Below, in pieces: positions 1-11,394 of a DNA stretch of 11,394 bases. A model generated the notes under the pieces. It did not search any database, was not told the DNA's origin, and saw nothing but the letters and a program-made list of their open reading frames with translations. How positions within the stretch are numbered: position 1 is the first letter of the stretch; each line of letters opens with the position of its first letter. This stretch comes from Halalkalibacterium halodurans. Lineage in GTDB: Bacteria > Bacillota > Bacilli > Bacillales > Bacillaceae_D. The stretch covers positions 1-11,394 of the forward strand of contig NZ_SNUY01000063.1 of assembly GCF_004376175.1 (NCBI RefSeq). Direction: 5' to 3'. A program made the translations under genes and the position numbers.

Positions 1-160
1 CGCCCTTGATTGACCTCTGAATAAACCATTGGTGTGTTTGTCAAGAGCGATAGCGTGGCATTTCCACCTAATAAATGGTAGGTAGTATGAACCGTGCTAG
101 TTTTTCATAGAACTTTTGGCACTACCTCTTGTGTATTTCACTGGAATACACTGTAATATG

Positions 161-301
161 TCAATTTCCACTACGCCCTAACTCTTGAGTCGTAAAGTCG
201 TCACTTGAGGATGAAGAAGTTTGGCTAATATACCCTTGGTTTAAAATAATCATTCCAAGAGCCATACTAGCTACAAGAAACTTTAACATTGTTTTTTTCA
301 T
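161..301 (-). CDS. Phr-like secreted signalling-peptide precursor (46 aa); absent from the supplied ORF track
   Basis: Manual minus-strand translation gives MKKTMLKFLVASMALGMIILNQGYISQTSSSSSDDFTTQELGRSGN. The ATG (301-299) overlaps the TGA of the upstream TPR ORF (ATGA). A strong SD, AAGAGGAGG (complement of 312-320), lies 10 nt upstream. The product has a basic N-terminus, a hydrophobic signal core and a polar Ser-rich pro-region. The C-terminal GRSGN has Arg at position 2, as in many known Phr pentapeptides. The stop is at 163-161. Confidence 0.6.
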   Translation of the reverse strand: MKKTMLKFLVASMALGMIILNQGYISQTSSSSSDDFTTQELGRSGN

Positions 302-888
302 ATTCTCTCAGCCTCCTCTTGTAATGAAGAAGTATATTCTTTCGCTTTTAAAGCCTCGACTAAATATTTCGTTGCCAGTTCATACATTTCCTTCTTTTTG
401 AAATGACGCCCAGCAATTGCACTTAAATCTGAAACATCGTGCCACAATTTTTTCTTTTTTAATTTTTCCAATTCATCATCAAGAGAGGATTCGTTTGGCT
501 CTAGGTAAATGGATTGAATGATGGATATCTTTGTCTGATACGTCTGTTCATTTATTTCCTCAGCCAATTTTTTTGACTCATTGAGCCACTCCCTACCTTC
601 TTCTATCAAATCCATTCTGAACAATACTCTCGCCAACATGTACTTAATTGCTAAATATGTGTCCTTTTTAATGTCTTTTGGATAGTCTATATCAAGGGTT
701 GTCTCAAGCGAATTCCTAGCTGTTTGAAGGTTGTCTAAATATTCGTTATAAACTCCTAAATTAAAGTATCCTATGACTTTCAGAAACGGAATGTCGTTCG
801 AGGACGCTATCTCTATTGCCTCTTTACATAGATTAATAGCATTATTGTGCTGATTGAGACCGAGTTGATGATGCCCGAAAACATGCAA
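298..888 (-). pseudogene. Rap-family (RNPP) TPR quorum-sensing receptor/aspartate phosphatase, C-terminal half only (N-terminally truncated remnant)
   Basis: The 196-aa ORF is built of TPR-like helix pairs (AINLCKEAIEIA, YFNLGVYNEYLDNLQTARNSLETTL, YLAIKYMLARVLFRMDLIEEGREWLNESKKLAEE). Its tail is Rap-like (LEKLKKKKLWHDVSDLSAIAGRHFKKKEMYELATKYLVEALKAKE). A phr-like ORF overlaps its stop. Rap proteins are about 375 aa, so roughly 180 N-terminal residues (3-helix bundle plus first TPRs) are missing. No ATG or SD lies upstream in frame; the frame stays open to about 1002 but reads as non-TPR sequence. Confidence 0.6.
724..752 (+). promoter_or_regulatory. Candidate sigma-A-type promoter facing the 930-3368 cassette (TTGAAG-N17-TATAAA)
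   Basis: The -35 TTGAAG is at 724-729, the spacer is 17 nt, and the -10 TATAAA is at 747-752. The motif lies antisense inside the rap remnant, about 180 nt upstream of the 930 ATG. This is AT-rich DNA, so a chance match is quite possible. Confidence 0.2.
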
Positions 889-929
889 AGGATGTAGTCG
901 AAGGGCTGTATGAACTTGATCATGAAGGC

Positions 930-2273
930 ATGACCTTGATGCGAGAGCTTCAAAGAGAAATGAACGAACTAAAAGCCATATTAAAGCAAGTAATCGAGTG
1001 GACTACTAACGGAGGCCCTCTTCTAAACGGTGTTAATATTCAGGATGTGAGATCATACTTTCAAGATATGACCCTACATACGAAAGCATCGGAAATTGAT
1101 TTGGAGACTTTGGATGCTCATGCGCTTCGAGACATTCTTCAAGATGGAGCCCTTATCAAACCGATTGTACAAAAATTTGCTGCCGGAGAAGCTTTAACGT
1201 ATACAGAAAGGGAACTTCTCTATTTCTTCTTACAGCACATTTTCCTCGGTGCTGAAAAGCGAAAAGAAATTGAAAGCATTGCCGAGATGATCAGTGAAGA
1301 TCGGATCGATGAATTAGTTTATCGCCTCAATCATACCGTACTTACATCTGAAACTACCCTTGATGATGAAATCGCCCTTATACAGGCTTATTTGTTTAGT
1401 GGGAATCGTCAATTGGAAAAGGAGCTTTCTTATGAAGAAATGATCTCAATCTATAAATTAAGGTCATATTTAGCATTGATTGAGAATTATCAAGTCGCTC
1501 TTGAAGAGAATAAACGCCTATATGAAAATACGGATGTTTGGGCACGGGTAGAGTGGATTTCTTATGAGTACGTCCCAGGCGCTCGAAAACAAACCTATGC
1601 GTTTGAAACAGCCCTTCAAACAACGCCTGTAGTAAGTGTTTATAGTTTGAAGACACGAGAGGAATTTTTAGCAAGAGAAGGCCATCAATTAGACGGGAAG
1701 GCAGATGTTTCAAGGGTGACTTATCTGGTAGGGCAGAATATTTTGTTACAGTCAAATGAAGATGAGGCGAACGAGTTGCTTAAAAAATATAATGATTATA
1801 CGGAAAATTTTATAAAGAAAGAAGTAGTTAACGTTCAATCCCCTATAAAGAGTGGAAGTGCACTCGGACAAGTAGTTGGCTTAGTTAATCTAGGGAGAAA
1901 ATACAACGATGGCAAAGAAGATCTAGGAAGAAGACTCACGTCTGCTAAGACAAAGGGGATAGCCGGAGAGCTTAAAGCGAACCTTCTTATATCGGAACGC
2001 CCAAAGTGGTATGAAAATCGAGCAGGAGCTGAGATTTACCCTAGTGTTGCTACTCATGATATTGTGGGTCGGTGGAGAGAAGCGCACAGTATTAATCCCG
2101 ATATACCTTATCCTGAACAAGCGATAATTCAACAAGACTGGTATGAAATTAGCGAATTTCTTGCAAATCACGTCGATGACTTTGACAAAATTAATCCAGA
2201 ATTATACGTATATATCTTTGATGAGTCAAAGAGAAATGATCAAACAGTGGAAGAGATTGCAAATAGAAATTAG
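930..2273 (+). CDS. Hypothetical 447-aa protein, largely helical N-terminal two-thirds; possibly a 5'-truncated fragment of a larger (polymorphic-toxin-like) gene
   Basis: It is a long ORF with coherent low-GC codon usage. No convincing SD precedes ATG 930 (GAAGG ends 1 nt before it), and ATG 939 has only weak GAAGG at 10 nt. The frame is open upstream to 858 with no start codon. No signal peptide, TM segment or catalytic motif is recognisable. The C-terminal 43 aa are paralogous to the next gene's product. Confidence 0.6.
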   Translation: MTLMRELQREMNELKAILKQVIEWTTNGGPLLNGVNIQDVRSYFQDMTLHTKASEIDLETLDAHALRDILQDGALIKPIVQKFAAGEALTYTERELLYFFLQHIFLGAEKRKEIESIAEMISEDRIDELVYRLNHTVLTSETTLDDEIALIQAYLFSGNRQLEKELSYEEMISIYKLRSYLALIENYQVALEENKRLYENTDVWARVEWISYEYVPGARKQTYAFETALQTTPVVSVYSLKTREEFLAREGHQLDGKADVSRVTYLVGQNILLQSNEDEANELLKKYNDYTENFIKKEVVNVQSPIKSGSALGQVVGLVNLGRKYNDGKEDLGRRLTSAKTKGIAGELKANLLISERPKWYENRAGAEIYPSVATHDIVGRWREAHSINPDIPYPEQAIIQQDWYEISEFLANHVDDFDKINPELYVYIFDESKRNDQTVEEIANRN

Positions 2274-2291
2274 TCAGGCAGGTGGAGAACG

Positions 2292-2783
2292 ATGAAAGGA
2301 TCAACGAAAAAGCGACTAATCGTCATCATATTGGTCATCGCAGGAATCATTCTAGGGGTCTATTTGCATAACGAAAAGAAAAATGCGGATGAAGAGTTGA
2401 AGCTAGCTCAGTACAGGAATGAGGCAATTGCAAAAATGTTCTGGCTTGATGTTAAACATACAGGTAAAGACCCGAATGATGTTGAATTTTTTCCAAGCCA
2501 AGATACAGATCGAATAATGGAACGGTGGAATGCAGTCACAGAGCTATACCCAGAGGCCGGTTATCCAGACGAAGTGGTAGAGCGAGAAGATTGGTTCGAG
2601 GTGAGTCAAATTTTCCTGAAGATACCTTTTCATGAAATACAACAGGAAATGATTGAAGATACAGATGCTTTACCTGAGGGGGAGAGAGTACCTGAAAGTA
2701 GCCTGGAGGATTATATTTTTTATAGAAGTTTTAGTTTAGGACCAGTCTTAGTGGAGTTAGGGCTTGAAGAAGAGGATCATTAG
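2292..2783 (+). CDS. Small signal-anchored (N-in, C-out predicted) acidic protein, 163 aa, unknown function; candidate immunity/accessory protein
   Basis: SD AGGTGGAG (2280-2287) lies 4 nt before the ATG, and the gene starts 18 nt after the upstream stop. The N-terminus MKGSTKKR is followed by the hydrophobic stretch LIVIILVIAGIILGVYL, with no lipobox Cys. The remainder is acidic and shares a module with residues 367-409 of the upstream protein. Confidence 0.75.
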   Translation: MKGSTKKRLIVIILVIAGIILGVYLHNEKKNADEELKLAQYRNEAIAKMFWLDVKHTGKDPNDVEFFPSQDTDRIMERWNAVTELYPEAGYPDEVVEREDWFEVSQIFLKIPFHEIQQEMIEDTDALPEGERVPESSLEDYIFYRSFSLGPVLVELGLEEEDH

Positions 2784-2801
2784 TCATTGGGTGGTGGATC
2801 T

Positions 2802-3368
2802 ATGTCAAAGAAGTGGAAGATCATTTTAGGTCTAGTTGCTGTGTTGTTCGTCGGTGGTTATGTCATGACAAACATAATAAAGGATGAAGCACAGAAAATA
2901 GAAGAGGAAGTGAATAGAGTATACTCAGACTCTGTAACACTCATTCATATTGAAAAGATGGATCAGAACAAGGCTCTCGTCTTTTATGAGTGGGGTGGTA
3001 TGTGGGAGAGAGGGGGAAAACTTGCAGTTGCTCAATTAAAGAAGAACTTGCTAGGTTGGACTTTTGAGAGCAGCCTTTCAATAAGTGCTAGAGAAGAGAG
3101 ACGATCCTTAGCTTTTAATGAGTATGCTGTTATAGTTGGTCTGGCGCTCCATTCTATAGATTTTCATGAAATCAAAATTGAAACAGCAGATGGTGAGATA
3201 CATACAGCCACGATCATCGAAAATGAAGATAGCCGTGGACGCTATTGGTTCTATATAGCAAGCGAAGAAGAATCTGAAGAGATATTTAATGCGTCGGTTT
3301 ATATGATGACAAAAGATGGAGAAGTGATTGAAGAGATCGAGAAACCTGACAATGATCCGTTGTATTGA
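2802..3368 (+). CDS. Small signal-anchored protein, 188 aa (193 aa if TTG 2787 is used), unknown function
   Basis: ATG 2802 has SD GGTGG (2790-2794) at 7-nt spacing, so I prefer it to the TTG at 2787 used by the ORF track. The N-terminus MSKKWK is followed by IILGLVAVLFVGGYVM (a TM anchor). The rest is a beta-looking domain with an acidic tail. The gene is followed by a terminator. Confidence 0.75.
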   Translation: MSKKWKIILGLVAVLFVGGYVMTNIIKDEAQKIEEEVNRVYSDSVTLIHIEKMDQNKALVFYEWGGMWERGGKLAVAQLKKNLLGWTFESSLSISAREERRSLAFNEYAVIVGLALHSIDFHEIKIETADGEIHTATIIENEDSRGRYWFYIASEEESEEIFNASVYMMTKDGEVIEEIEKPDNDPLY

Positions 3369-3400
3369 AAGGTGTTTAGATACAATCAAGTAATTGTAAC

Positions 3401-3448: not shown

Positions 3449-4669
3449 TTATGAACTTTGTTGTTCGACTAGGGTTAATGTGGTCGTTTCCTTTTTCCCT
3501 TCGCGGTAGTAGGTGACTTCCACTTCGTCCCCAATGTTCAATTCGGTATATAAAAATTTCCGTAATTCGTGGCCGTCGTTAATGTCTTCACCGTTGAGCT
3601 CGACGATGACATCGTACTGCCGCAATCCGGCTGTTTCGGCAGGTGACATCGGTACCACGTCGGTGATCACGACGCCGCCCTTCACATCTTCAGGGAGTTT
3701 AAGCGTCTCTTCCCAATGGAAGCTCGGAATCTCACTTAGTGAACGGAAGGCGACACCCATCTGTGGACGCTGCACCTCACCGTAAAACTCCAAATCTTCG
3801 ATGACTGGAATCGCGAGGTTCGATGGAATGGCAAAGCCAATGCCTTCAACAGCACTTTGCGCAATTTTCATTGAGTTAATCCCAATCACTTGACCTTGGA
3901 TGTTCACGAGTGCGCCGCCGCTGTTCCCAGGGTTGATCGCTGCATCCGTTTGCAGCACCTCGGCCTGCCAGTCGATTTGTCCGTTGCCTGTTAAGTCGAT
4001 TGGAATGCTTCGCTCGGTCGCACTGATGATTCCGAGAGTGACAGAGCTTGAGAAGCGTAACCCCAGCGGATTTCCGATCGCGATCGCCGGCTCACCTGGG
4101 CTGAGAAGGTCGGAGTTCCCGAATTCAGCAACGGTTTCTACGTCAGACCCGTCAATTTCGAGAACCGCCAAATCCGTGAAAACGTCTGATCCTAGCACTT
4201 CAGCTGGGAGGCGGGAGCCGTCGGTTAACACGACCTCGACTTGATTAGCACCGGAAATAACGTGCTCATTCGTGACGATAAACGCCCGATCGCCTTCTTT
4301 TTTGTAAATGACTCCAGATCCTGTCCCTTCCTCTTCCTCTGAGGAGGAGAACATGCTGCCATTTGTCATGCTAACGATCCCAACGACGGCGTCAGATACT
4401 TTCTCTACCGCTTGAGAGACATCTGAATTTACGGCATAATTGACCGTTTCGATGTCGTTAGGTGCTTCCGTCAGCTGACCTGTTTCTTCTGTGGGTGCTC
4501 CTGAGTCTATTTCATAAGGTAGCCAGCCAAGACCTGAGAGAGCCGGTACCGAAAAAAGAACGAGAAGTGCGCCTAAAATAGCACCGATAAATGCAGAAAT
4601 GCCAATTCCTCGTCTTGCGCCTTTTTGCTTTTCATTTCGATTAGATACGTGTTCATCATAGTACCCCAT
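3449..4669 (-). CDS. htrC: HtrA/DegP-family membrane-anchored serine protease with C-terminal PDZ domain (YyxA/HtrC position)
   Basis: Catalytic triad contexts are present: TNEHVI (His), DLAVLEI (Asp) and GNSGGALVN (Ser). The N-terminal TM is ISAFIGAILGALLVLFSV. The PDZ-like segment is GGVVITDVVPMSPAETAGLRQYDVIVELNGEDI. SD AAAGGTGGG lies upstream of the ATG. The gene sits directly downstream of yycJ, as in the Bacillus subtilis wal cluster; the symbol is assigned by synteny. Confidence 0.9.
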   Translation of the reverse strand: MGYYDEHVSNRNEKQKGARRGIGISAFIGAILGALLVLFSVPALSGLGWLPYEIDSGAPTEETGQLTEAPNDIETVNYAVNSDVSQAVEKVSDAVVGIVSMTNGSMFSSSEEEEGTGSGVIYKKEGDRAFIVTNEHVISGANQVEVVLTDGSRLPAEVLGSDVFTDLAVLEIDGSDVETVAEFGNSDLLSPGEPAIAIGNPLGLRFSSSVTLGIISATERSIPIDLTGNGQIDWQAEVLQTDAAINPGNSGGALVNIQGQVIGINSMKIAQSAVEGIGFAIPSNLAIPVIEDLEFYGEVQRPQMGVAFRSLSEIPSFHWEETLKLPEDVKGGVVITDVVPMSPAETAGLRQYDVIVELNGEDINDGHELRKFLYTELNIGDEVEVTYYREGKKETTTLTLVEQQSS

Positions 4670-4771
4670 ATGATATCACCCACCTTTATTATGAATGGAA
4701 ATAGTCCATTTATCCTTATTATATAAGGCTTTTTTCATTACGCTAGCCGACTAGGCCTATTTGCACAATTT

Positions 4772-4799
4772 TTTATACTTCTAATAGAATTGCCAACAA
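4772..4799 (-). promoter_or_regulatory. Candidate sigma-A promoter for the htrA-like gene (TTGTTG-N16-TATAAA on the minus strand)
   Basis: On the minus strand, -35 TTGTTG is the complement of 4794-4799 and -10 TATAAA is the complement of 4772-4777. The motif is downstream of the yycJ terminator and about 100 nt upstream of ATG 4669. The -35 is weak and the spacing suboptimal. Confidence 0.25.
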
Positions 4800-4885
4800 C
4801 ATTGACGCTTAATCATGGAAGTTGCACCTTTAACCGTGGGAAATTGACGCACGTTCCGATGACATGATGAAAGCAGTTCATCCAT

Positions 4886-4915
4886 AAAGAAAAAAGCCTC
4901 CGAAAAAAGGAGACT
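4886..4915 (-). terminator. Rho-independent terminator immediately after walJ/yycJ
   Basis: The minus strand reads AGTCTCC-TTTTTTC-GGAGGCT-TTTTTCTTT. This is a 7-bp stem (one G-U pair) with a 7-nt loop and a T-tract. It starts 2 nt after the TAA stop (4919-4917). Confidence 0.6.
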
Positions 4916-4916
4916 T

Positions 4917-5711
4917 TTACACGACTGCGAGGGGCGTCGGCTTATATGGATCGGTATCATAGAGGCGGAACCGCTCGCCAACTGCCAATCCTTGTTCCTG
5001 TAACACTTGCTCGACCGTGAGCCGAGCCAACTCTTTCATATTATTGTCCAAGCTTAGGTGAGCGAGATAGATTCGCTCGGTACGGTCGCCAATCACCTCG
5101 GCTAGCGCGTACGCCGCATCTTCATTGGAGACATGGCCCACATCGCTCAAAATCCGCCGTTTGACATTCCACGGATACCGCCCCATTCGGAGCATGTTTA
5201 AATCATGATTGGCCTCAAAAATGAGTGTATCGGCGTTTTCGATCGTCTTTTTAATCCGTTCACTTACATAGCCCATATCGGTCGCAAGGACAAGCTTTTT
5301 CCCATCGTGGTGAAAGACGTAAAACATCGGCTCAGCGGCATCGTGGGACACGCCGAACGATTCCACTTCTAAGTCGGCAAACGTCTTCACCTCACCGATT
5401 TCAAAATGAAACCGCTGGTCGGTTGTGAGCGTTCCGAGAGCCTTTTCCATCGCTTGCCATGTTTTGGCGTTAGCGTAAATGGGAAGGTTGTATTTCCGCG
5501 CGATGATGCCGACCCCTTTTATGTGATCGCTATGCTCATGGGTGACGAGAATTCCGTTGAGTTGACTCGGGTCGCAGTCAATTTTTTGGAACAGCTCGTC
5601 CATTTTTTTGCCGCTCAGCCCAGCGTCAACGAGCAGCTTTTGCTTATCTGTCTCCACGTAAAGAGCATTTCCCGTACTCCCGCTCGCTAAAACACTAAAT
5701 CGCAACGACAT
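4917..5711 (-). CDS. walJ: Metallo-beta-lactamase-fold hydrolase WalJ/YycJ
   Basis: The MBL signature [11 protein letters not shown] (HxHxDH) is present. At 264 aa it has the same length class as B. subtilis YycJ. SD AGAGGGAGAG is upstream. Its position after yycI matches the wal cluster. Confidence 0.92.
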
Positions 5712-5725
5712 CGTTTCTCTCCCTC

Positions 5726-6514
5726 TTACTGAATAATCTCACCGCCAATGGCGTTGATTAAGTACGTGTTCTGTTCGCCTTCTTGCTCATCGACGACGGT
5801 AATTTGCCACATGGGGGCAAACACTTGGATGGCTCCTTCTTGATGCACGAGGCTATGGTAGCCAAATTCGATCGCAGTTACGGCTTGGTTCATGCGCAAA
5901 AGCTGATCGGTATAAAGGCCTTCGATCGCCCGCAGGCTTGACATGAGGTCATGTTCCCGCCCGTGTTCCTCAAATTCAAGGATCGATTGCTCGTATCCGA
6001 TGATTTCTTGCTTCTCATTAAAATTTAATACGAGCTGCCCGTCTTCATAGGTGTACGTTGTAAACCCTTCATATTGTTGGTACAGCGGCAGTCTTCTATT
6101 GTCTTGGTCAAAGGCTCCGAACTGATAGGCCGATCCGTTCAGAACATACGTATTGACGAAGCTTCGCAGTTGCTGTCCCATGTTTTGGTCTGAGATCGGG
6201 TAGGGCTCATCCAGTGTAGCGACAAGCCGAGTCGGTTCAGGGAACGAAAGGTTGTCCGCTGGAAGAGGCACGACATCGACCATGGCTTGGGTCCATTCCT
6301 TCTTTTTTCCGACAAGATGTAGGCCGGATGGCTTGATCTCTGGTAGTTCCACATGAATGGAAATGTTGTTATCATTTAAAATTTCTTGAATGCTAGACTC
6401 GTTTAAAATCGCAATTTGATTGGCGCTTTTTTTATCGAGTAGCTGCCAAGTGAGGAAAAGGTTAATCAACAGGAAGATGATGATAAATATGGACTTCGTT
6501 CTACTCCAATCCAT
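5726..6514 (-). CDS. yycI: WalK-regulatory membrane-anchored protein YycI
   Basis: The N-terminus [26 protein letters not shown] is typical of YycI, with a single N-terminal TM and an extracytoplasmic domain. It is 262 aa long. Its ATG (6514-6512) overlaps the end of yycH by 14 nt. Confidence 0.88.
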
Positions 6515-7820
6515 CAGTCACTTCCTCCTTTGCTGTCAAATCAATCTTTTCCCACCGCCCGTCGTATTTTACAAACCAGAAAGGCTCGGCAATCACATAG
6601 GACGGTTTCACCATCTCGTAGCCGATTACCATTTTCTCAAGGGATCTAGGATTGAAATCTTCTCGCTCTTTTAAGGCGTCTAGCACTTCTTCGCCAGAAG
6701 GAAGCTCCTTTTTCCCTCCATCAATCGGCTGATTGTCAATGTCAAATAAAGGCCGGCGATATTCAGTCGGTTGATTCCCTGAGCCCCGTCGGACTAAATC
6801 TAGCTTCATTAAATCTTCGCCTTGAAAGCTCATCACCGGAAAGCCGTTCACCCGCAAACGATACGATACGAGATCCCGCGTTCCGAACGATTGCCAGTCG
6901 TCAAGGATGTACTGATCGGTCCATCCCCCGTGACTGTTAATAAAATCAAAGCTCGCCTGAATGATGTGCCTACCGCTTCGTTCCGTCGTTTCCGAGAAGA
7001 CGGGGTTCGTGTATTCCATAAAGTTGCCGCCGCCTTGTTCGGAAATGATGCGGTTCCCATCCGTGTAAGAATCGTCCTTCCCGTTTGATTGATGATACAT
7101 GCTGACCGCACTCGGATCGGTAAACAACGCTTGCGAAAACTGCATCGATGACAGCATCGTCGCCGTATACGAGAGTGTCGGCAAATGAGTGTGATCCACT
7201 GGGACGTATTGATTTTGCTGGTGCATTCCCATGACGACAGAAGTGGCCGCCATATAGTCATCCGTATCTTCCATGAGCGCTTCAAGATCCGAAGGGCTCA
7301 TATCCGTTTTGATCGTCACCACTTGTTCATCAAAAAGAGAAAGAAGCTGAGCCACGACCCCTTCATCAGGCTCCACGTAAAAGTAGATGCGATTGATCGA
7401 CGTGAGTGGCAGTAGAAAATCCTCGTCCTCCACATCAAACAAATGGACAAACAATTCGCTCGGAATCGAGGTAGGGTAAATGAGTTGAATGCCTGTCGGA
7501 GCACTGGCAAACGGGTGTTGTACTCTCATGTCATCGTCGATGAAGGTCGTCTCGCTCATTGTTGCTAAAAAGTCTTTATGTTGCTCAAGGTCCGGACGAA
7601 CGATGTAATACTCTTCATCTCCCCCATGGACGATCATCGATTCGGGAACGATCACTTCATTCATGGAGCGCTCTTCTTCAAGACGGATCAATTCCTCATA
7701 GTTGTTTTCATTATCTAAGACCGCGTAGTCCAGTTGAAACGTCCACAGTTGCCAAGTGAGGACCCAGCTCATAATCACAAGTCCAGTGAGGAGGACGGTT
7801 TTGATGTTTTCATAGTTCAC
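6501..7820 (-). CDS. yycH: WalK-regulatory membrane-anchored protein YycH
   Basis: The GTG start overlaps the walK stop (GTGA at 7820-7817). The N-terminal anchor is IKTVLLTGLVIMSWVLTWQLWTFQ, followed by a large extracytoplasmic domain. It is 439 aa long and sits between walK and yycI. Confidence 0.88.
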   Translation of the reverse strand: MNYENIKTVLLTGLVIMSWVLTWQLWTFQLDYAVLDNENNYEELIRLEEERSMNEVIVPESMIVHGGDEEYYIVRPDLEQHKDFLATMSETTFIDDDMRVQHPFASAPTGIQLIYPTSIPSELFVHLFDVEDEDFLLPLTSINRIYFYVEPDEGVVAQLLSLFDEQVVTIKTDMSPSDLEALMEDTDDYMAATSVVMGMHQQNQYVPVDHTHLPTLSYTATMLSSMQFSQALFTDPSAVSMYHQSNGKDDSYTDGNRIISEQGGGNFMEYTNPVFSETTERSGRHIIQASFDFINSHGGWTDQYILDDWQSFGTRDLVSYRLRVNGFPVMSFQGEDLMKLDLVRRGSGNQPTEYRRPLFDIDNQPIDGGKKELPSGEEVLDALKEREDFNPRSLEKMVIGYEMVKPSYVIAEPFWFVKYDGRWEKIDLTAKEEVTDGLE

Positions 7821-9640
7821 GCTTCTTCCCCCTTGAACGTGGAATAAGGCAACGTAAAGTAGATCGTCGTTCCAACCTTGTACTTGCTCTCAACCCAAAT
7901 TTCCCCTCCGTGGGCATGAACAAGCTCTTTTGCAATCGCAAGCCCTAGCCCTGTGCCACCAACGCTCCGGGCCCGCGCCTTGTCTACGCGATAAAACCGG
8001 TCAAAGATTTTCGTTTGGCTTTCTTTCGGAATCCCCATTCCTTGATCGGAAATGCTGACGCGTACATTGTGGCCTTGATGCAGCAAGGTGATCGCCACGT
8101 CGCCTCCTTCTGGGGAATATTTCATCGCGTTCGACAAAATGTTGTCGATGACTTGTGTGAGCTTGTCCTGATCGATTTCCACAAAGGTGGCGTGCTTCGT
8201 AATTTTGCGAATGAAATGAATGTCTTTCTCCTTGGCGATGATTTCATGACGATCAATCATGTCATGCAAATACGGTCCAAGGTCCACCCATGAGAGGTTC
8301 AGCTTGTAATCATGGGTATCAATTTTTGAAAGCTGCAATAAATCATTGACGAGACGAATCATGCGCTCTGTCTCATTTTGCGTTACATGTAGGAAGCGGG
8401 GCGCTAGGTTTGGATCGTTCATCGCGCCATCATCTAACGCTTCTAAATAGCTTTTCATCGTCGTCAGCGGTGTTCGCAGCTCATGAGACACATTGGCGAC
8501 AAACTCTCGTCGCTCTTGCTCGATTTTTTCCCGTTCTGTTACATCATGAAGCACCGTAATTAAGCCATTTACAGGTCCTTCATCCTCTTGAATAACGGAG
8601 AAGCTCGCTTGGATTAAATAATCTTCCTCGGTGCTAAAATCAAGCAGGACGCTATCGTTGTAATCATATAATTCATCGACTGCAAACGTTTCACTAATGT
8701 TTAACAGTTCAGGCAAAAGGGTTCCCTGTACCTCTTCATAGCTCACGCCGAGCATTTCCTCGGCCCGCTTGTTCATTAAAATAATTTTCCCATACTTATC
8801 GGACGCAATTACTCCATCTGTCATATGTGTCAGGACAGATCGGAGCTTCTTCTGTTCCTGGTCCCTTGTAGAAAGGGCGTCCTTCAGCTTCATCGTCAAG
8901 TCGTTAAACGACATAGCGAGCTGACCGATTTCATCGGTGCTGTGGACGTTTACCTTTCGAGAGAAGTCCCCATACCCCATGCGCAACGCCTGCTTACGCA
9001 TGTCTAAAATCGGACCAGTAATCGTCCGTGAAAGGAGGATCATTAATAGGGCGGTAATGCTGGCGGCAATGAGCGTCCCACTCGCTAAAATACTATTAAT
9101 ATCCTGCATCTGGTCATAAATGTCCTCAATAGAAGCTTCGATGTAAAGGGCACCGACAATCGCTTCTTCATCACGAATCGGTACAGCCAAGACGCGAATG
9201 CGATTTCCGGTTTGCGGATCGCGGTAGATCGAGCCAGGGCCGTCACGATTGCCGATTAACGCCCGTCGTACCGGGATTTCAGAGCTCAGCTGCCCGATAA
9301 TGTTTTGATTTGATAAATTGGACGTACCGATGACGACACGATTGGCGTCGATCACCTGCACCTCTGAGTTTTCAATGGAAAAGAGATCCCGCAGCAAGCT
9401 GTTCACTTCCGCTGTCAATTCTGCACGGTCCTCCCATTGCGCTGTTAACGGTTCGACTAAGCTATAGGCTAAAAGGTCCGCTCGCTCATCAAGCATGTTA
9501 AAATGGTTTTCTACGAGCTGATCCTCTAGCTGACGCGTAAAATACACGCCCATGATTTGCATGGCAATTAAAATGAGCAGCACGTAGATGATGATGAGCT
9601 TAAATTGAATCGATTTAAAAAAGCCGACCTTTCGCTCCAT
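7817..9640 (-). CDS. walK: Essential cell-wall-homeostasis sensor histidine kinase WalK (YycG)
   Basis: It has two TM segments flanking an extracytoplasmic domain. It also has HAMP (ITGPILDMRKQALRMGYGDFSRKV...IGQLAMSFNDLTMKL) and PAS (MTDGVIASDKYGKIILMNKRAEEMLG) regions. The kinase boxes are H-box VSHELRTPLT, N-box DNILSNAMKYSP, G1 DQGMGI and G2 GGTGLGLAI. It is 607 aa long, and its ATG overlaps the walR stop (TAATG). Confidence 0.97.
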   Translation of the reverse strand: MERKVGFFKSIQFKLIIIYVLLILIAMQIMGVYFTRQLEDQLVENHFNMLDERADLLAYSLVEPLTAQWEDRAELTAEVNSLLRDLFSIENSEVQVIDANRVVIGTSNLSNQNIIGQLSSEIPVRRALIGNRDGPGSIYRDPQTGNRIRVLAVPIRDEEAIVGALYIEASIEDIYDQMQDINSILASGTLIAASITALLMILLSRTITGPILDMRKQALRMGYGDFSRKVNVHSTDEIGQLAMSFNDLTMKLKDALSTRDQEQKKLRSVLTHMTDGVIASDKYGKIILMNKRAEEMLGVSYEEVQGTLLPELLNISETFAVDELYDYNDSVLLDFSTEEDYLIQASFSVIQEDEGPVNGLITVLHDVTEREKIEQERREFVANVSHELRTPLTTMKSYLEALDDGAMNDPNLAPRFLHVTQNETERMIRLVNDLLQLSKIDTHDYKLNLSWVDLGPYLHDMIDRHEIIAKEKDIHFIRKITKHATFVEIDQDKLTQVIDNILSNAMKYSPEGGDVAITLLHQGHNVRVSISDQGMGIPKESQTKIFDRFYRVDKARARSVGGTGLGLAIAKELVHAHGGEIWVESKYKVGTTIYFTLPYSTFKGEEA

Positions 9641-10350
9641 TAAGCATTCTCCTGCTCAGGGTGACGCAAATAGTACCCGACTCCACGGCGTGTAATAATC
9701 CACGTTGGATAGCTAGGATTGTCCTCTACTTTCTCTCTGAGGCGACGAACGGTGACATCGACTGTGCGGACATCTCCGAAGTAATCATAGCCCCATACAG
9801 CCTGCAGCAGGTGCTCACGGGTCATCACTTGGCCTAGATGCTTGGCTAAGTAATGTATAAGCTCAAATTCCCGATGAGTGAGTTCGATGGATTCTCCGCG
9901 TTTTTTCACGAGATAGGCCTCTGGGTGGATCGATAAATCTCCGACTGAGATTTCCTTATACGAGAGTTGATCGTCGCCAGATGTTTGGTGACGACGCAAA
10001 TTCGCCTTCACTCTCGCTAATAGCTCTCGGGTACTAAATGGCTTTGTCACGTAGTCATCGGCCCCTAATTCAAGGCCTAACACTTTATCGATTTCCGAGT
10101 CTTTTGCGGTCAGCATGATGATCGGCATCTCAAATTGCTTACGAACCTCTCGGCACACTTCCATACCGTCTTTATTCGGTAGCATGATATCTAGCAAAAT
10201 TAAATCCGGCTTTTCCTGATTCACCTGTTCCACAGCTTCAGCTCCATCATAGGCACATATGACGGTAAACCCTTCTTTTTCTAAATTGAATTTCAGTATA
10301 TCTGCAATTGGCTTTTCGTCGTCAACAACTAGAATTTTTTTATTTTCCAT
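9640..10350 (-). CDS. walR: OmpR-family response regulator WalR (YycF)
   Basis: The receiver domain ([15 protein letters not shown]...[24 protein letters not shown]...[45 protein letters not shown]) closely resembles my recollection of B. subtilis WalR. A winged-helix output domain is present ([23 protein letters not shown]...[15 protein letters not shown]). SD GGAG lies upstream. Confidence 0.97.
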
Positions 10351-10694: not shown

Positions 10695-11394
10695 TTATCC
10701 TACCCCGAATGTTTGATGTTTGAATGGATGATGCATGAGAATACGGCTTCGCAAGCGATCATAACGCCGAAAACCAAAGGCATTTCTCTTAATCACCTTC
10801 GTTTGATTATTCAGTCCTTCAATAAAACCATTGTTTAAGCCAAACGCGAAGCTATTCAAGATCTCGGTCTGTTGACCCTTCTCTTGAAGATATCGTTTAA
10901 GCGTATCGGCTTTACGATCCGGTAAGATATCCAGTGGCTTCCGTGTATCTGCATCCGCAATGATCACTTGATATTTCCCCGCTTTCGTATCCCCTTTGTA
11001 ATCATCAATCGCAATCCGAGGAGGAAGGTGATCCACCTTCTTCACGAGGGGGGCCGCCAATTGATCAAACCGGCGCATGGCAGTTGTCACGGACGTTTGG
11101 AATTGATTCGCTGTGTCCGTAAAGTTCTTCCCTTGAATGAGCCGTAAGCGAAACGCTTGATTCCATTCCACTGTCTGACGCTGATATCGCTCTACAAAAC
11201 AGGCTTTCTCCGCAAACCGCTTCCCGCATCTGCACGCGTACCGGCGCTTTCGATAGAATAGATACACCCACCGTTCAAAGAGCTTGAGATGTTGAACTTT
11301 TTGGATGCGGTAATCATGGATTCTCTCGGTTCTCTCCCCGCAGGATGGGCAACGATGAGGCGTTCGCGGCATTTCTACATGGAGCGCGATAAAG
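10695..11394 (-). pseudogene. ISL3-family transposase remnant with an in-frame internal deletion; 5' end runs off the window
   Basis: An N-terminal zinc-finger pair is present (CPSCG...CRCG). IAIDDYKGD matches the ISL3 region around the first catalytic Asp. YLQEKGQQ then joins directly to the ISL3 C-terminal signature TEILNSF...NGFIEGLNNQTKVIKRNAFGFRRYDRLRSRIL. About 200 aa, including the second Asp and the Glu, are therefore missing (full length is usually about 400-440 aa). The frame is open from 11373 to the edge (..FIALHVE-MPRT), so the true start is probably outside the window. Confidence 0.85.

Follow-up and report, generated by a model that had tools for sequence, protein, structure and literature searches.

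A truncated LXG effector gene of Halalkalibacterium halodurans and its membrane-anchored neighbour encode homologous copies of an undescribed domain

The window, as the whole stretch of DNA analysed is termed here, comprises 11,394 nucleotides of Halalkalibacterium halodurans (contig NZ_SNUY01000063.1). Its minus strand carries at positions 298–857 the C-terminal half of a gene for a Rap-like TPR regulator, recognised by partial library matches and by comparison with a related, intact locus (L001). The only matches of this rap remnant were to positions 183–363 of the 372 in phrog_5208 and to TPR families of Pfam; window positions 125–776 correspond to L001 7709–8363, the 3′ half of a gene for a 371-aa RapH_N/TPR protein. 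Read directly from the sequence, Rap homology extends up to about nt 857, and the first ~10 codons of the ORF as listed (298–888) are antisense LXG DNA rather than rap. A deletion junction lies at 857/858, where blastn against L001 places rap DNA (minus strand) head-to-head with LXG-effector DNA (plus strand). According to blastn and the L001 gene map, ~2.0 kb of the intact locus (about L001 8445–10437) is absent from the window. The lost stretch includes the 5′ half of rap, the intergenic promoter region, the genes for a YwqH-like and a DUF5344 protein, and codons 1 to about 145 of the LXG gene. No promoter-like site was seen on the plus strand upstream of 930.

The junction is followed by a 5′-truncated T7SSb LXG polymorphic effector gene (858–2273, plus strand, as are all features below). 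Its frame is open from 858 (DRVDDARKHAKD...), and the mechanically called ORF runs from an ATG at 930 to 2273 and encodes 447 aa. Residues 1–160 (930–1409) form a constant part that covers the last portion of the LXG region and the beginning of a conserved body; this part is near-invariant among strains, with almost all of its columns invariant in alignment A1. Residues 161–447 (1410–2270) form the variable part of the body, delimited by the divergence that begins at about column 330 of the same alignment, and comprise in order a helical region, a three-stranded sheet region, and a C-terminal domain. The full extent of homology of the latter, as defined by hhalign, is residues 333–444 (1926–2261). 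Its most conserved core in alignments, referred to here as module copy 1, spans residues 367–409 (2028–2156) and includes P371, T375, R381-W382, P390, Y394-P395, and D403-W404.

In the same reading frame, 3′ of the effector after a TAA and 18 nt, lies a gene for a 163-aa membrane-anchored paralogue of that domain (2292–2783), a candidate immunity protein of the BH4018/BH4020 family. Hydropathy predicts a transmembrane anchor at residues 5–28 (2304–2375) with the N-terminus inside. The ectodomain region (residues 35–153, 2394–2750) is homologous to the effector C-terminal domain by hhalign and MAFFT, and holds module copy 2 (residues 64–106, nt 2481–2609) as well as an insertion of ~20 residues (MIEDTDALPEGERVPESS). 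The predicted orientation agrees with the positive-inside rule: across 42 family members, the N flank of the anchor carries 3.0 K/R and 0.24 D/E, and the C flank has a net charge of −1.2. The ectodomains of the family are strongly acidic. The 163-aa protein is thus predicted to be tethered outside the membrane with its N-terminus in the cytoplasm. Neither Pfam, NCBIfam, PHROGs, nor PADLOC, known immunity families included, gave a match above threshold. A second cassette gene follows at 2787–3368; it is listed with 193 aa, has an N-terminal transmembrane anchor, and probably starts at the ATG at 2802 (MSKKWK...).

Full-length H. halodurans relatives of the effector are 590–620 aa long, share 71–85% identity with the window gene, and carry a Pfam LXG domain (PF04740) at the N-terminus. 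The start of the window ORF aligns to residue ~147 of 593-aa relatives and to residue ~171 of the 614–620-aa forms. Pfam finds no LXG domain in the window ORF, that part having been removed by the deletion, and Lap/WXG100-like helper genes directly upstream were lost with it. Intact loci (L001, L031, L032, and L033) have YwqH-like and DUF5344 genes upstream, and the Shouchella loci have WXG100 (L008) or EsaA, EssA, and WXG100 (upstream in L022). Another truncated relative, P0004, was considered as a further instance of the same deletion and rejected, since it merely ends with its contig.

Identity between strains is 97–100% in the constant part versus 53–87% in the variable part, with a sharp breakpoint between them. 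Two further proteins, P0009 and P0011, have only residues 1–60/78 in common with the window ORF and end in other C-terminal toxin domains, which in P0011 are PT-TG plus LHH. Such a combination, with the N-terminal part constant, the C-terminal cassette variable, and other cassettes on related scaffolds, is expected of polymorphic toxins. By these comparisons, the large ORF of the window is a 5′-truncated remnant of a T7SSb LXG polymorphic effector and not a functional member of the family. As it is 5′-truncated and has neither secretion domain, helper genes, nor promoter region, this copy is unlikely to be secreted. The suggestion in an earlier note on this DNA that one copy of the module is soluble or secreted and the other tethered outside the membrane therefore suits the effector family and the predicted anchor of the 163-aa protein, but probably not the window's own effector. 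The locus is best read as a decayed toxin gene with a retained, putative immunity cassette.

Judged by its sequence, the effector body of ~365 residues is an undescribed family in Bacillaceae, mostly in alkaliphilic or halophilic genera. Searches of curated libraries (Pfam, NCBIfam, PHROGs, and PADLOC) returned nothing for the 447-aa protein. No nuclease domain was detected by Pfam and related searches, and Pfam, PDB profiles, and Foldseek revealed no catalytic or pore-forming fold and no known toxin domain in the body. The name used by NCBI, “ribonuclease YeeF family”, is on this evidence a scaffold-based label that is unsupported for the present C-terminal region. The body has no hydrophobic segment, and its C-terminal domain is the best-conserved portion across genera. 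Homologues of the whole body also exist as lipoproteins, a class with two class-specific conserved Cys residues; the single member of this class that was examined had no module-protein neighbour.

The similarity between the two neighbouring proteins was the central claim of the earlier note, and it is confirmed. The two peptides quoted there are present exactly at nt 2028–2156 and 2481–2609, and BLASTP recovered the same gap-free alignment (45 columns, of which 14 are identical and 26 positive; pairwise E = 3e-8). The Smith–Waterman score is 94. In comparison, 2000 shuffles of the small protein gave a mean of 36.4 (sd 5.8) and a maximum of 74, 1000 shuffles of the large protein a maximum of 62, and 20,000 shuffles within the Trp/Tyr/Pro-rich 43-mers a maximum of 55, so that none of them reached the real score (Gumbel p about 2e-6). 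Composition is ruled out as the cause of the match by the last of these series, in which the shuffles were composition-matched. Nucleotide identity between the copies is 53%, in agreement with the low similarity stated in the earlier note.

The relationship also extends well beyond the 43 residues first described. Comparison of the two H. halodurans families by hhalign aligned 78 columns (probability 96.8%, E = 2.8e-10), and the family-wide profiles (A6 versus A9) aligned 107 columns (99.4%, E = 2.1e-21). The latter pairs toxin residues 333–444 with residues 35–153 of the small protein, i.e., about 110 residues and the entire predicted outer domain. In MAFFT alignments, a common Y-I motif (Y428/I429 with Y141/I142) and the tail align as well. 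The module is therefore only the core of a larger region of homology and, while near the C-terminus of the effector, is not its extreme end, as 38 residues follow it. A degenerate DNA pattern occurs in the window only at 2040–2141 and 2493–2594 and was matched by none of 200 shuffles, and an HMM of the module scores 95 and 101 bits on the two window copies. That two Trp/Tyr/Pro/Glu-rich segments match by chance or composition, an idea invited by the shortness of the segment and its 31% identity, has negligible probability and is refuted by the shuffles, by the profile–profile E value, by the recovery of 167 clusters of both architectures with one HMM (see below), and by the restriction of the DNA pattern to two window sites.

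Predicted structures are in keeping with this relationship. AlphaFold2 modelled the variable part of the effector with a pLDDT of 73.7 and a pTM of 0.72, and its C-terminal domain appears as a long helix, a beta-hairpin (351–357 and 364–370), and six helices that make up a small bundle rich in conserved Trp, Tyr, and Pro. The model of the 163-aa protein has a pLDDT of 88.2, with residues 3–49 in one long helix. Secondary-structure elements come in the same order in the two predicted domains, a likeness that is not fully independent of the sequence comparison, since the alignment used for the small protein included rows of toxin C-termini. Both window copies fit the pattern P-x3-T-x5-R-W-x11-Y-P-x7-[DEN]-W ... 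Y-I within a unit of helix, hairpin, and helical bundle. A Foldseek search of the effector model against the PDB gave no match at E ≤ 0.001, and matches of its central sheet region to NTF2/VirB8-like folds were not accepted (probability ≤ 0.6, E about 1). For the 163-aa protein, neither Foldseek against the PDB nor PDB sequence profiles gave a significant match. On these sequence and profile comparisons, the effector C-terminal domain and the 163-aa ectodomain are homologous copies of one undescribed domain.

An HMM built from both module copies recovered 167 representative clusters with two recurring architectures; a search of this kind had been proposed as a check in the earlier note. Although direct searches with the 163-aa protein found homologues (60–82% identity) in H. 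halodurans only, with several per genome, the module HMM detected the same architecture in many Bacillaceae. One further match, P0116 (1150 aa, with Ig repeats), was treated as a false positive. A set of 25 loci was collected with a degenerate DNA pattern made by hand; about five of them, all non-Bacillota (L005, L015, L017, L021, and L026), were set aside as chance matches, since they have no significant body-HMM match and only a weak module-HMM trace (14 bits, L015).

Intact effectors were found in Halalkalibacterium, Shouchella, Amphibacillus, Alkalicoccobacillus, and other Bacillaceae. In the four named genera and in Bacillus caseinilyticus, the effector gene is always followed directly by one for a membrane-anchored module protein, with gaps of about 10–40 nt. 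A module protein with a transmembrane anchor occupies this position in the window and in L001, L006, L008, L010, L016, L018, L019, L023, and L024. A locus may carry as many as three or four copies, arranged as divergent arrays, and L014 and L022 contain orphan toxin C-terminal fragments that are each followed by a module protein of their own. (A candidate fragment of this kind at L008 3832–4248 proved to be a truncated small-protein gene.) The LXG effector family, the downstream arrays, and the orphan cassettes bear out the earlier impression that the neighbouring genes resemble a toxin/immunity pair. The module protein is not indispensable, however, since behind the same body Oceanobacillus, Cerasibacillus, and Avamphibacillus encode unrelated lipoproteins of ~130 aa and no module protein.

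The toxin and small-protein lineages each keep their own signature in several genera, and cognate toxin/small-protein pairs show no excess of similarity over non-cognate ones, a result on which recurrent duplication and gene conversion were rejected. Adjacency of the ORFs in one frame, with only a TAA and 18 nt between them, and the frequent recombination of polymorphic toxin loci could bring to mind a recent event in this strain, such as gene conversion, a local repeat, or in-frame fusion of an immunity fragment; this is highly improbable and is refuted by the low nucleotide identity, by the presence of the module in every toxin and every small-protein homologue of several genera, and by the grouping of toxin copies with toxin copies and small-protein copies with small-protein copies across genera. 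True paralogy by old duplication, as originally proposed, is thus upheld, and the comparisons indicate that the pairing of effector and tethered copy in at least five genus-level groups is the product of a single ancient duplication.

The partner gene is a constant feature. Every 163-aa-type gene is accompanied, on its 3′ side, by a 193-aa-type gene, as in the two L001 pairs (162 + 190 aa and 164 + 189 aa), and the same pairing is seen in Amphibacillus, B. caseinilyticus, and Shouchella, where the partner is a lipoprotein. No family match in Pfam, NCBIfam, PHROGs, or PADLOC was obtained for the 193-aa protein or for the partners from other genera. The idea that the partner is another homologue of a toxin part was rejected, as neither the body HMM nor the module HMM matches it. 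The 193-aa protein, likewise membrane-tethered by prediction, could equally be the immunity determinant.

From the arrangement of these genes and their predicted topology, it seems somewhat probable that the system consists of an envelope-acting toxin and an immunity protein descended from that toxin's C-terminal domain. The effector would be a toxin that works in the wall or on the outer surface of the cytoplasmic membrane, a site suggested by the fact that all genes 3′ of the effector encode outside-tethered proteins and that homologues of the body include lipoproteins. The immunity determinant would be the 163-aa protein, probably with its 193-aa partner. It would display a copy of the toxin C-terminal domain at the membrane surface and bind incoming toxin directly, by way of the contacts that normally join this domain to a second toxin molecule or to the remainder of its own toxin, and would so act as a dominant-negative cap. 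With several divergent copies in an array, different toxin variants would be covered. More tentatively, the immunity protein may have arisen by duplication of the toxin C-terminal domain and tethering at the outer face, and may neutralise either as a dominant-negative copy or as a decoy of the docking site.

An alternative regarded as rather unlikely follows the earlier note in taking the shared domain for a ligand-binding one. Its target would be a conserved component of the envelope, for example peptidoglycan, lipid II, a membrane protein, or a polymer of the teichoic or teichuronic kind. On the toxin the domain would serve for targeting, and the small protein would occupy this receptor at the producer's surface and block docking. 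Conserved aromatic-rich motifs are typical of glycan-binding surfaces, the same Trp, Tyr, Pro, Arg, and Asp positions are invariant in both lineages, and both copies are predicted to function outside the membrane. Moreover, the C-terminal domain is the most conserved in the body across genera, so a conserved function such as ligand binding fits it at least as well as a variant-specific interface does. Against this, the residues common to both lineages (P, T, RW, YP, DW, and YI) may be determinants of the fold only, and the searches matched the domain to no family or fold known to bind carbohydrate or lipid. Nor would a receptor shield require two to four divergent copies at one locus, or orphan cassettes; rather, the arrays and the orphan pairs of toxin fragment and small protein indicate variant-specific recognition.

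It is less likely again that the 163-aa protein is an accessory with a shared structural domain, perhaps a docking site on the producer at which the secreted effector is retained or matured, and that the 193-aa protein is the true immunity factor. The invariable presence of the second membrane-tethered gene accords with this, as do the three genera in which the body is found with other lipoproteins, and in the literature searched no precedent was found for toxin and immunity partners of related sequence. On the other hand, it is the module gene that directly adjoins effectors and orphan toxin C-terminal fragments, that is amplified and diversified as immunity genes are, and that is still intact in the window despite the disabled effector. 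Its divergence also follows that of the toxin C-terminus better than the partner's does, albeit weakly: over five distinct loci, Spearman coefficients were 0.47–0.62 for the 163-aa type and −0.19 to −0.26 for the 190-aa type, with a counter-example in the window and L030, whose cassettes are 80% alike and whose toxin C-terminal domains are 54% alike.

An envelope toxin countered by a tethered copy of its own domain can be set beside several known systems. One is TelC–TipC of Streptococcus intermedius, in which a T7SSb LXG effector with lipid II phosphatase activity is paired with an immunity protein that is anchored in the membrane and faces outward (PMC6193138). Both systems have an LXG effector whose C-terminal toxin region is large (~350 aa) and works outside the cytoplasmic membrane (here putatively), next to a gene for a protein attached to the external face of that membrane (here by prediction). 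The effector nevertheless has no sequence or fold similarity to TelC: PDB sequence profiles gave no TelC match at E ≤ 1, and TelC was not among the top 50 Foldseek matches listed. TipC is, to our knowledge, unrelated to TelC, whereas the tethered protein described here and the C-terminal domain of its effector are paralogues.

Intact loci of the family also resemble the LXG loci of the B. subtilis type (YeeF–YezG, and YwqJ–YwqK with YwqH/YwqI) in their N-terminal LXG domain, upstream YwqH-like and DUF5344/WXG100-like genes, variable C-terminal cassette, downstream genes of putative immunity function, and extra orphan copies. Toxins of that type act as nucleases or deaminases, and their immunity proteins are small and cytoplasmic; here, in contrast, the proteins encoded downstream are tethered to the membrane, one of them shares homology with the toxin, and the effector lacks a detectable nuclease domain. 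TspA–TsaI, EsxX, and TelE represent other LXG-type T7SS effectors with membrane-resident immunity. The two-gene cassette recalls the two immunity families of EsxX, but the glycine-zipper or hydrophobic C-termini of TspA, EsxX, and TelE have no counterpart in the present body, and their immunity proteins are polytopic or cytoplasmic, unlike the single-pass or lipid-anchored partners described here.

There are conceptual precedents for protection that stems from part of a toxin or from one of its forms. In HipBST, the antitoxin HipS is equivalent to the N-terminal subdomain of HipA-type kinases, and in yeast the unprocessed protoxin of the K1 and K28 killer toxins gives immunity. Folds, organisms, and compartments differ among these cases, and the present one would involve a secreted interbacterial toxin and a separate, membrane-tethered paralogue.

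In polymorphic toxin systems, toxin and immunity proteins are normally unrelated, and the origin of new immunity specificities is poorly understood. Within the incomplete literature coverage of this analysis, neither a description of the family nor a case of toxin-derived immunity in such systems was found. The family offers a handle on an uncharacterised class of T7SSb effectors that probably act on the envelope, and corrects the database labels that assign its C-terminal region to a ribonuclease. The window locus itself provides an example of toxin loss with retention of a putative immunity cassette. If the paralogue is the immunity factor, the family would present a case in which the evolution of immunity from the toxin could be tested directly. 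Should the paralogue indeed act by imitating the toxin's own domain, this would represent a previously unrecognised origin of immunity to a secreted interbacterial toxin, and would add both a new effector fold and a new immunity fold to T7SSb.

The window holds a disabled type VII secretion (T7SSb) LXG effector followed by an intact downstream cassette, the first protein of which carries an ectodomain that is a true, ancient homologue of the effector's own C-terminal domain. Three plus-strand ORFs are involved: the 447-aa effector remnant (930–2273), a 163-aa small membrane-anchored protein (2292–2783), and a second membrane-tethered protein of 193 aa, here called the partner (2787–3368). The remnant and the 163-aa gene lie in one reading frame, separated by a TAA and 18 nt (2271–2291).

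The earlier note had claimed that residues 367–409 of the 447-aa ORF and 64–106 of the 163-aa ORF share a homologous 43-aa module, and this observation is confirmed. Both peptides are encoded where it placed them (2028–2156 and 2481–2609), and BLASTP, which returned the identical ungapped pairing, counts 14 identities and 26 positives among 45 columns (E=3e-8). By Smith-Waterman the pair scores 94; the best of 2000 small-protein shuffles reached 74 (mean 36, sd 5.8), and the best of 1000 shuffles of the large protein 62. Shuffling within the two 43-mers, which preserves their unusual Trp/Tyr/Pro-rich composition, reached 94 in 0 of 20,000 trials (max 55).

The match is not confined to the module. 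An HMM of the effector body, the ~365-aa region that ends with the module-bearing domain, aligns to the small proteins at HMM positions ~215–346, and MAFFT pairs small-protein residues ~27–163 with the last ~130 residues of the toxins, with a ~20-residue insertion in the small protein and an invariant Y-I (Y141/I142 in the small protein, Y428/I429 in the toxin). When a profile of 30 diverse bodies was compared with one of 30 diverse small proteins, the match had a probability of 99.4% (E=2.1e-21, 107 columns; toxin 333–444 against small protein 35–153). AlphaFold2 models (small protein, mean pLDDT 88.2, pTM 0.72; remnant, mean pLDDT 73.7, pTM 0.72) show an identical order of elements, the toxin's alignment having contained no small proteins and the small protein's having contained toxin C-terminal rows. 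A long helix (toxin 311–348; small protein 3–49, including the transmembrane segment) precedes a beta-hairpin (351–357/364–370; 53–56/64–67) and six helices (373–388, 396–400, 404–413, 415–421, 423–431 and 440–445 in the toxin; 70–85, 93–97, 101–110, 113–124, 137–144 and 150–155 in the small protein).

That the pair stems from an old duplication rather than a recent repeat, with low nucleotide similarity, was also upheld: the two copies are 53% identical at the nucleotide level. A comparison over 12 loci, with 13 toxin copies or fragments and 22 copies of the small protein, showed that similarity in the module between cognate neighbours (22–40%) does not exceed that between non-cognate ones. 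The toxins have a signature of their own (RWEEVHxINPxIPYP), as do the small proteins (RWKAV[ST]ExxPxxxYP). These two features indicate a single ancient duplication, older than these genera, rather than gene conversion or repeated copying.

The closest relatives of the 447-aa ORF are H. halodurans proteins of 590–620 aa, 71–85% identical across all 447 residues, which carry a Pfam LXG domain N-terminal to the homologous part and are labelled by their sources as “T7SS effector LXG polymorphic toxin” or “ribonuclease YeeF family”. The alignment starts at about residue 147 of the 593-aa relatives, equivalent to ~171 of the 614–620-aa forms. An intact locus in a complete H. halodurans genome (L001) consists of a minus-strand gene for a Rap-like regulator (371 aa), YwqH-like and DUF5344 genes, a 614-aa LXG effector, small-gene pairs of 162 + 190 and 164 + 189 aa, and htrC. 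Window positions 125–776 match the 3′ half of the L001 rap, and positions from 857 onward match its effector from about codon 146. In the sequence itself, minus-strand Rap homology can be followed as far as about nt 857, with the effector frame (DRVDDARKHAKD...) uninterrupted from nt 858 on; the first ~10 codons of a 196-aa ORF (298–888) are antisense LXG sequence. A ~2.0-kb deletion has thus joined rap and the effector gene head-to-head at 857–858, taking with it the 5′ half of rap, the two helper genes with the intergenic region, and the part encoding the LXG secretion domain. Given this deletion and the lack of any promoter-like plus-strand site upstream of the remnant, the 447-aa “protein” is a decayed toxin gene; the two genes downstream are intact.

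A 46-aa Phr-like prepeptide ORF (MKKTMLKFLVASMALGMIILNQGYISQTSSSSSDDFTTQELGRSGN; 164–301, minus strand) starts with an ATG that shares bases with the stop codon of rap (ATGA), as is classical for rap-phr pairs, and is orphaned here since rap is truncated; L001 has three small ORFs (42–46 aa) at the equivalent place. The toxin/immunity block (1–3400) has ~39% G+C and adjoins the minus-strand walR-walK-yycH-yycI-walJ-htrC operon (3450–10350), at ~49%. The sharpness of this change is consistent with a variable island inserted beside the conserved operon. Beyond it, a 225-aa ISL3-family transposase fragment (10695–11372, minus strand; model positions 8–174 of 370, E=1e-56) looks truncated or disrupted.

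The module has many other family members. A 60-column HMM built from both module types and run on 1.84 billion representative proteins recovered 167 clusters at E≤1e-3, of which 49 pass E≤1e-10, and no homologue of the toxin or of the 163-aa protein lacks the module. Three classes are seen. The first comprises proteins of 155–178 aa that resemble the window's small protein, with an N-terminal transmembrane helix, the module at ~58–118, and a ~48-residue tail. Members of the second (445–620 aa) have an LXG or shorter W-x-G-containing N-terminal domain, then the conserved ~365-residue body, with the module ending ~30 residues short of the C-terminus. Those of the third (~340 aa) mostly have a lipoprotein signal peptide and lipobox; homology to the body spans the whole of their mature sequence, and they have two conserved cysteines that T7SS-class proteins lack. 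Lipoprotein members in the protein alignment include P0010, P0024, P0037, P0056, P0061, P0083 and P0091. The sole context examined for this class, that of P0152 (L027 6386–7423), has only a small multi-TM gene upstream, with no T7SS genes or module protein nearby. Proteins of this class could be toxins exported by Sec, or decoys, or serve another role.

A degenerate DNA motif pattern matched the window only twice, at the expected sites, and found 25 loci in a one-genome-per-species collection, ~20 of them in Bacillaceae (Amphibacillus, Shouchella, Alkalicoccobacillus, Oceanobacillus, Cerasibacillus, Pseudogracilibacillus, “Avamphibacillus” and B. caseinilyticus). Pairing of effector and tethered paralogue is conserved across genera: ORF and HMM maps place a TM-anchored module protein directly 3′ of a long effector in L001, L006, L008, L010, L016, L018, L019, L023, L024, and the window. 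Additional module-protein copies follow at ~1.3-kb spacing, each with a second membrane-tethered protein of ~170–200 aa. Unrelated ~130-aa lipoproteins take the place of the module protein after the body in Oceanobacillus, Cerasibacillus and “Avamphibacillus”. These form arrays of ~126–140-aa proteins (L002 3371–3751, L003 3682–4104, and several in L013 and L025) with the motif GGxWxxTAGYxxGxxEGxPxC; Pfam has no match for them, and they are a possible alternative immunity family.

In secretion scaffold and locus logic the family follows the T7SSb LXG polymorphic toxins. The remnant's first ~160 residues are 97–100% identical across H. halodurans strains, the remainder only 53–87%. In other Bacillaceae, related LXG scaffolds have just the end of the LXG region in common with it and continue into different C-terminal domains (for example, PT-TG plus an LHH nuclease in P0011). 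In Shouchella, the effector lies just 3′ of EsaA, EssA and WXG100 genes. One H. halodurans strain (GCA_001274915.2) has two loci of the family (L030 and L031); one adjoins htrC, as in the window, and the other, with three small-gene pairs, lies beside sigma-factor/PadR/FtsW genes. Orphan C-terminal toxin fragments occur in L014 and L022, each with its own small gene directly after, and L008 has decayed small-gene copies. Within downstream arrays, a truncated gene for the small protein and orphan effector fragments, from the N-part of the body or from the C-terminal part, resemble CDI/Rhs orphan cassettes (L008 3832–4668, L014 2275–4798, L022 7032–7346). Two other neighbours were seen. L001 (1145–3234, minus strand) encodes a reverse transcriptase (RVT_1, 480 aa) and an adjacent SLATT_5 protein within a few kb of its toxin locus; the two may be a retron- or DRT-type defence pair. 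Just 3′ of the B. caseinilyticus array (L024 6125–7040), the peptide VALFMSAWIE recurs in several short ORFs that lie in different frames. This indicates repeated DNA, which could be CRISPR-like or another kind of repeat.

Charge counts over 42 members of the small-protein family give an average of 3.0 K/R and 0.24 D/E on the N-terminal side of the TM helix and a net negative C-terminal side; the C-terminal domain beyond is strongly acidic (mean net charge -18.6). This pattern supports a predicted N-in/C-out topology. The occurrence of both the domain and the whole body in lipoproteins with class-specific cysteines, and the fact that the alternative downstream genes encode lipoproteins, argue that the module-bearing domain would work outside the membrane. 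The effector would thus be a putative toxin acting on the envelope, and the tethered paralogue, alone or with the partner, would provide immunity. Amplification and diversification of the small genes, and their occurrence with orphan toxin fragments, favour a reading in which a copy of the toxin's own domain would engage it directly and variant-specifically, as a dominant-negative cap. The main rival holds that both domains occupy a common envelope ligand; in its favour, both lineages strongly conserve the same aromatic and charged residues across genera. A further possibility is that immunity lies instead with the ~190-aa partner; in a small test of co-divergence over five distinct loci, with one counter-example, the 163-aa type is weakly favoured (Spearman 0.47–0.62 versus -0.19 to -0.26).

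The closest functional analogue of the system is TelC-TipC, in which an LXG toxin acts on the envelope and its immunity protein is tethered facing outward (PMC6193138). The window family shows no sequence or fold relationship to TelC, which neither model matched; no PDB entry matched either model at E≤0.001, and PDB sequence profiles gave nothing convincing. No description of the body family, the small protein family, or a toxin-derived immunity protein was found in the literature searched, and the curated libraries hold no model for the body or the small protein. Since the window copy is only a remnant, the interest of the finding lies at the level of the family.
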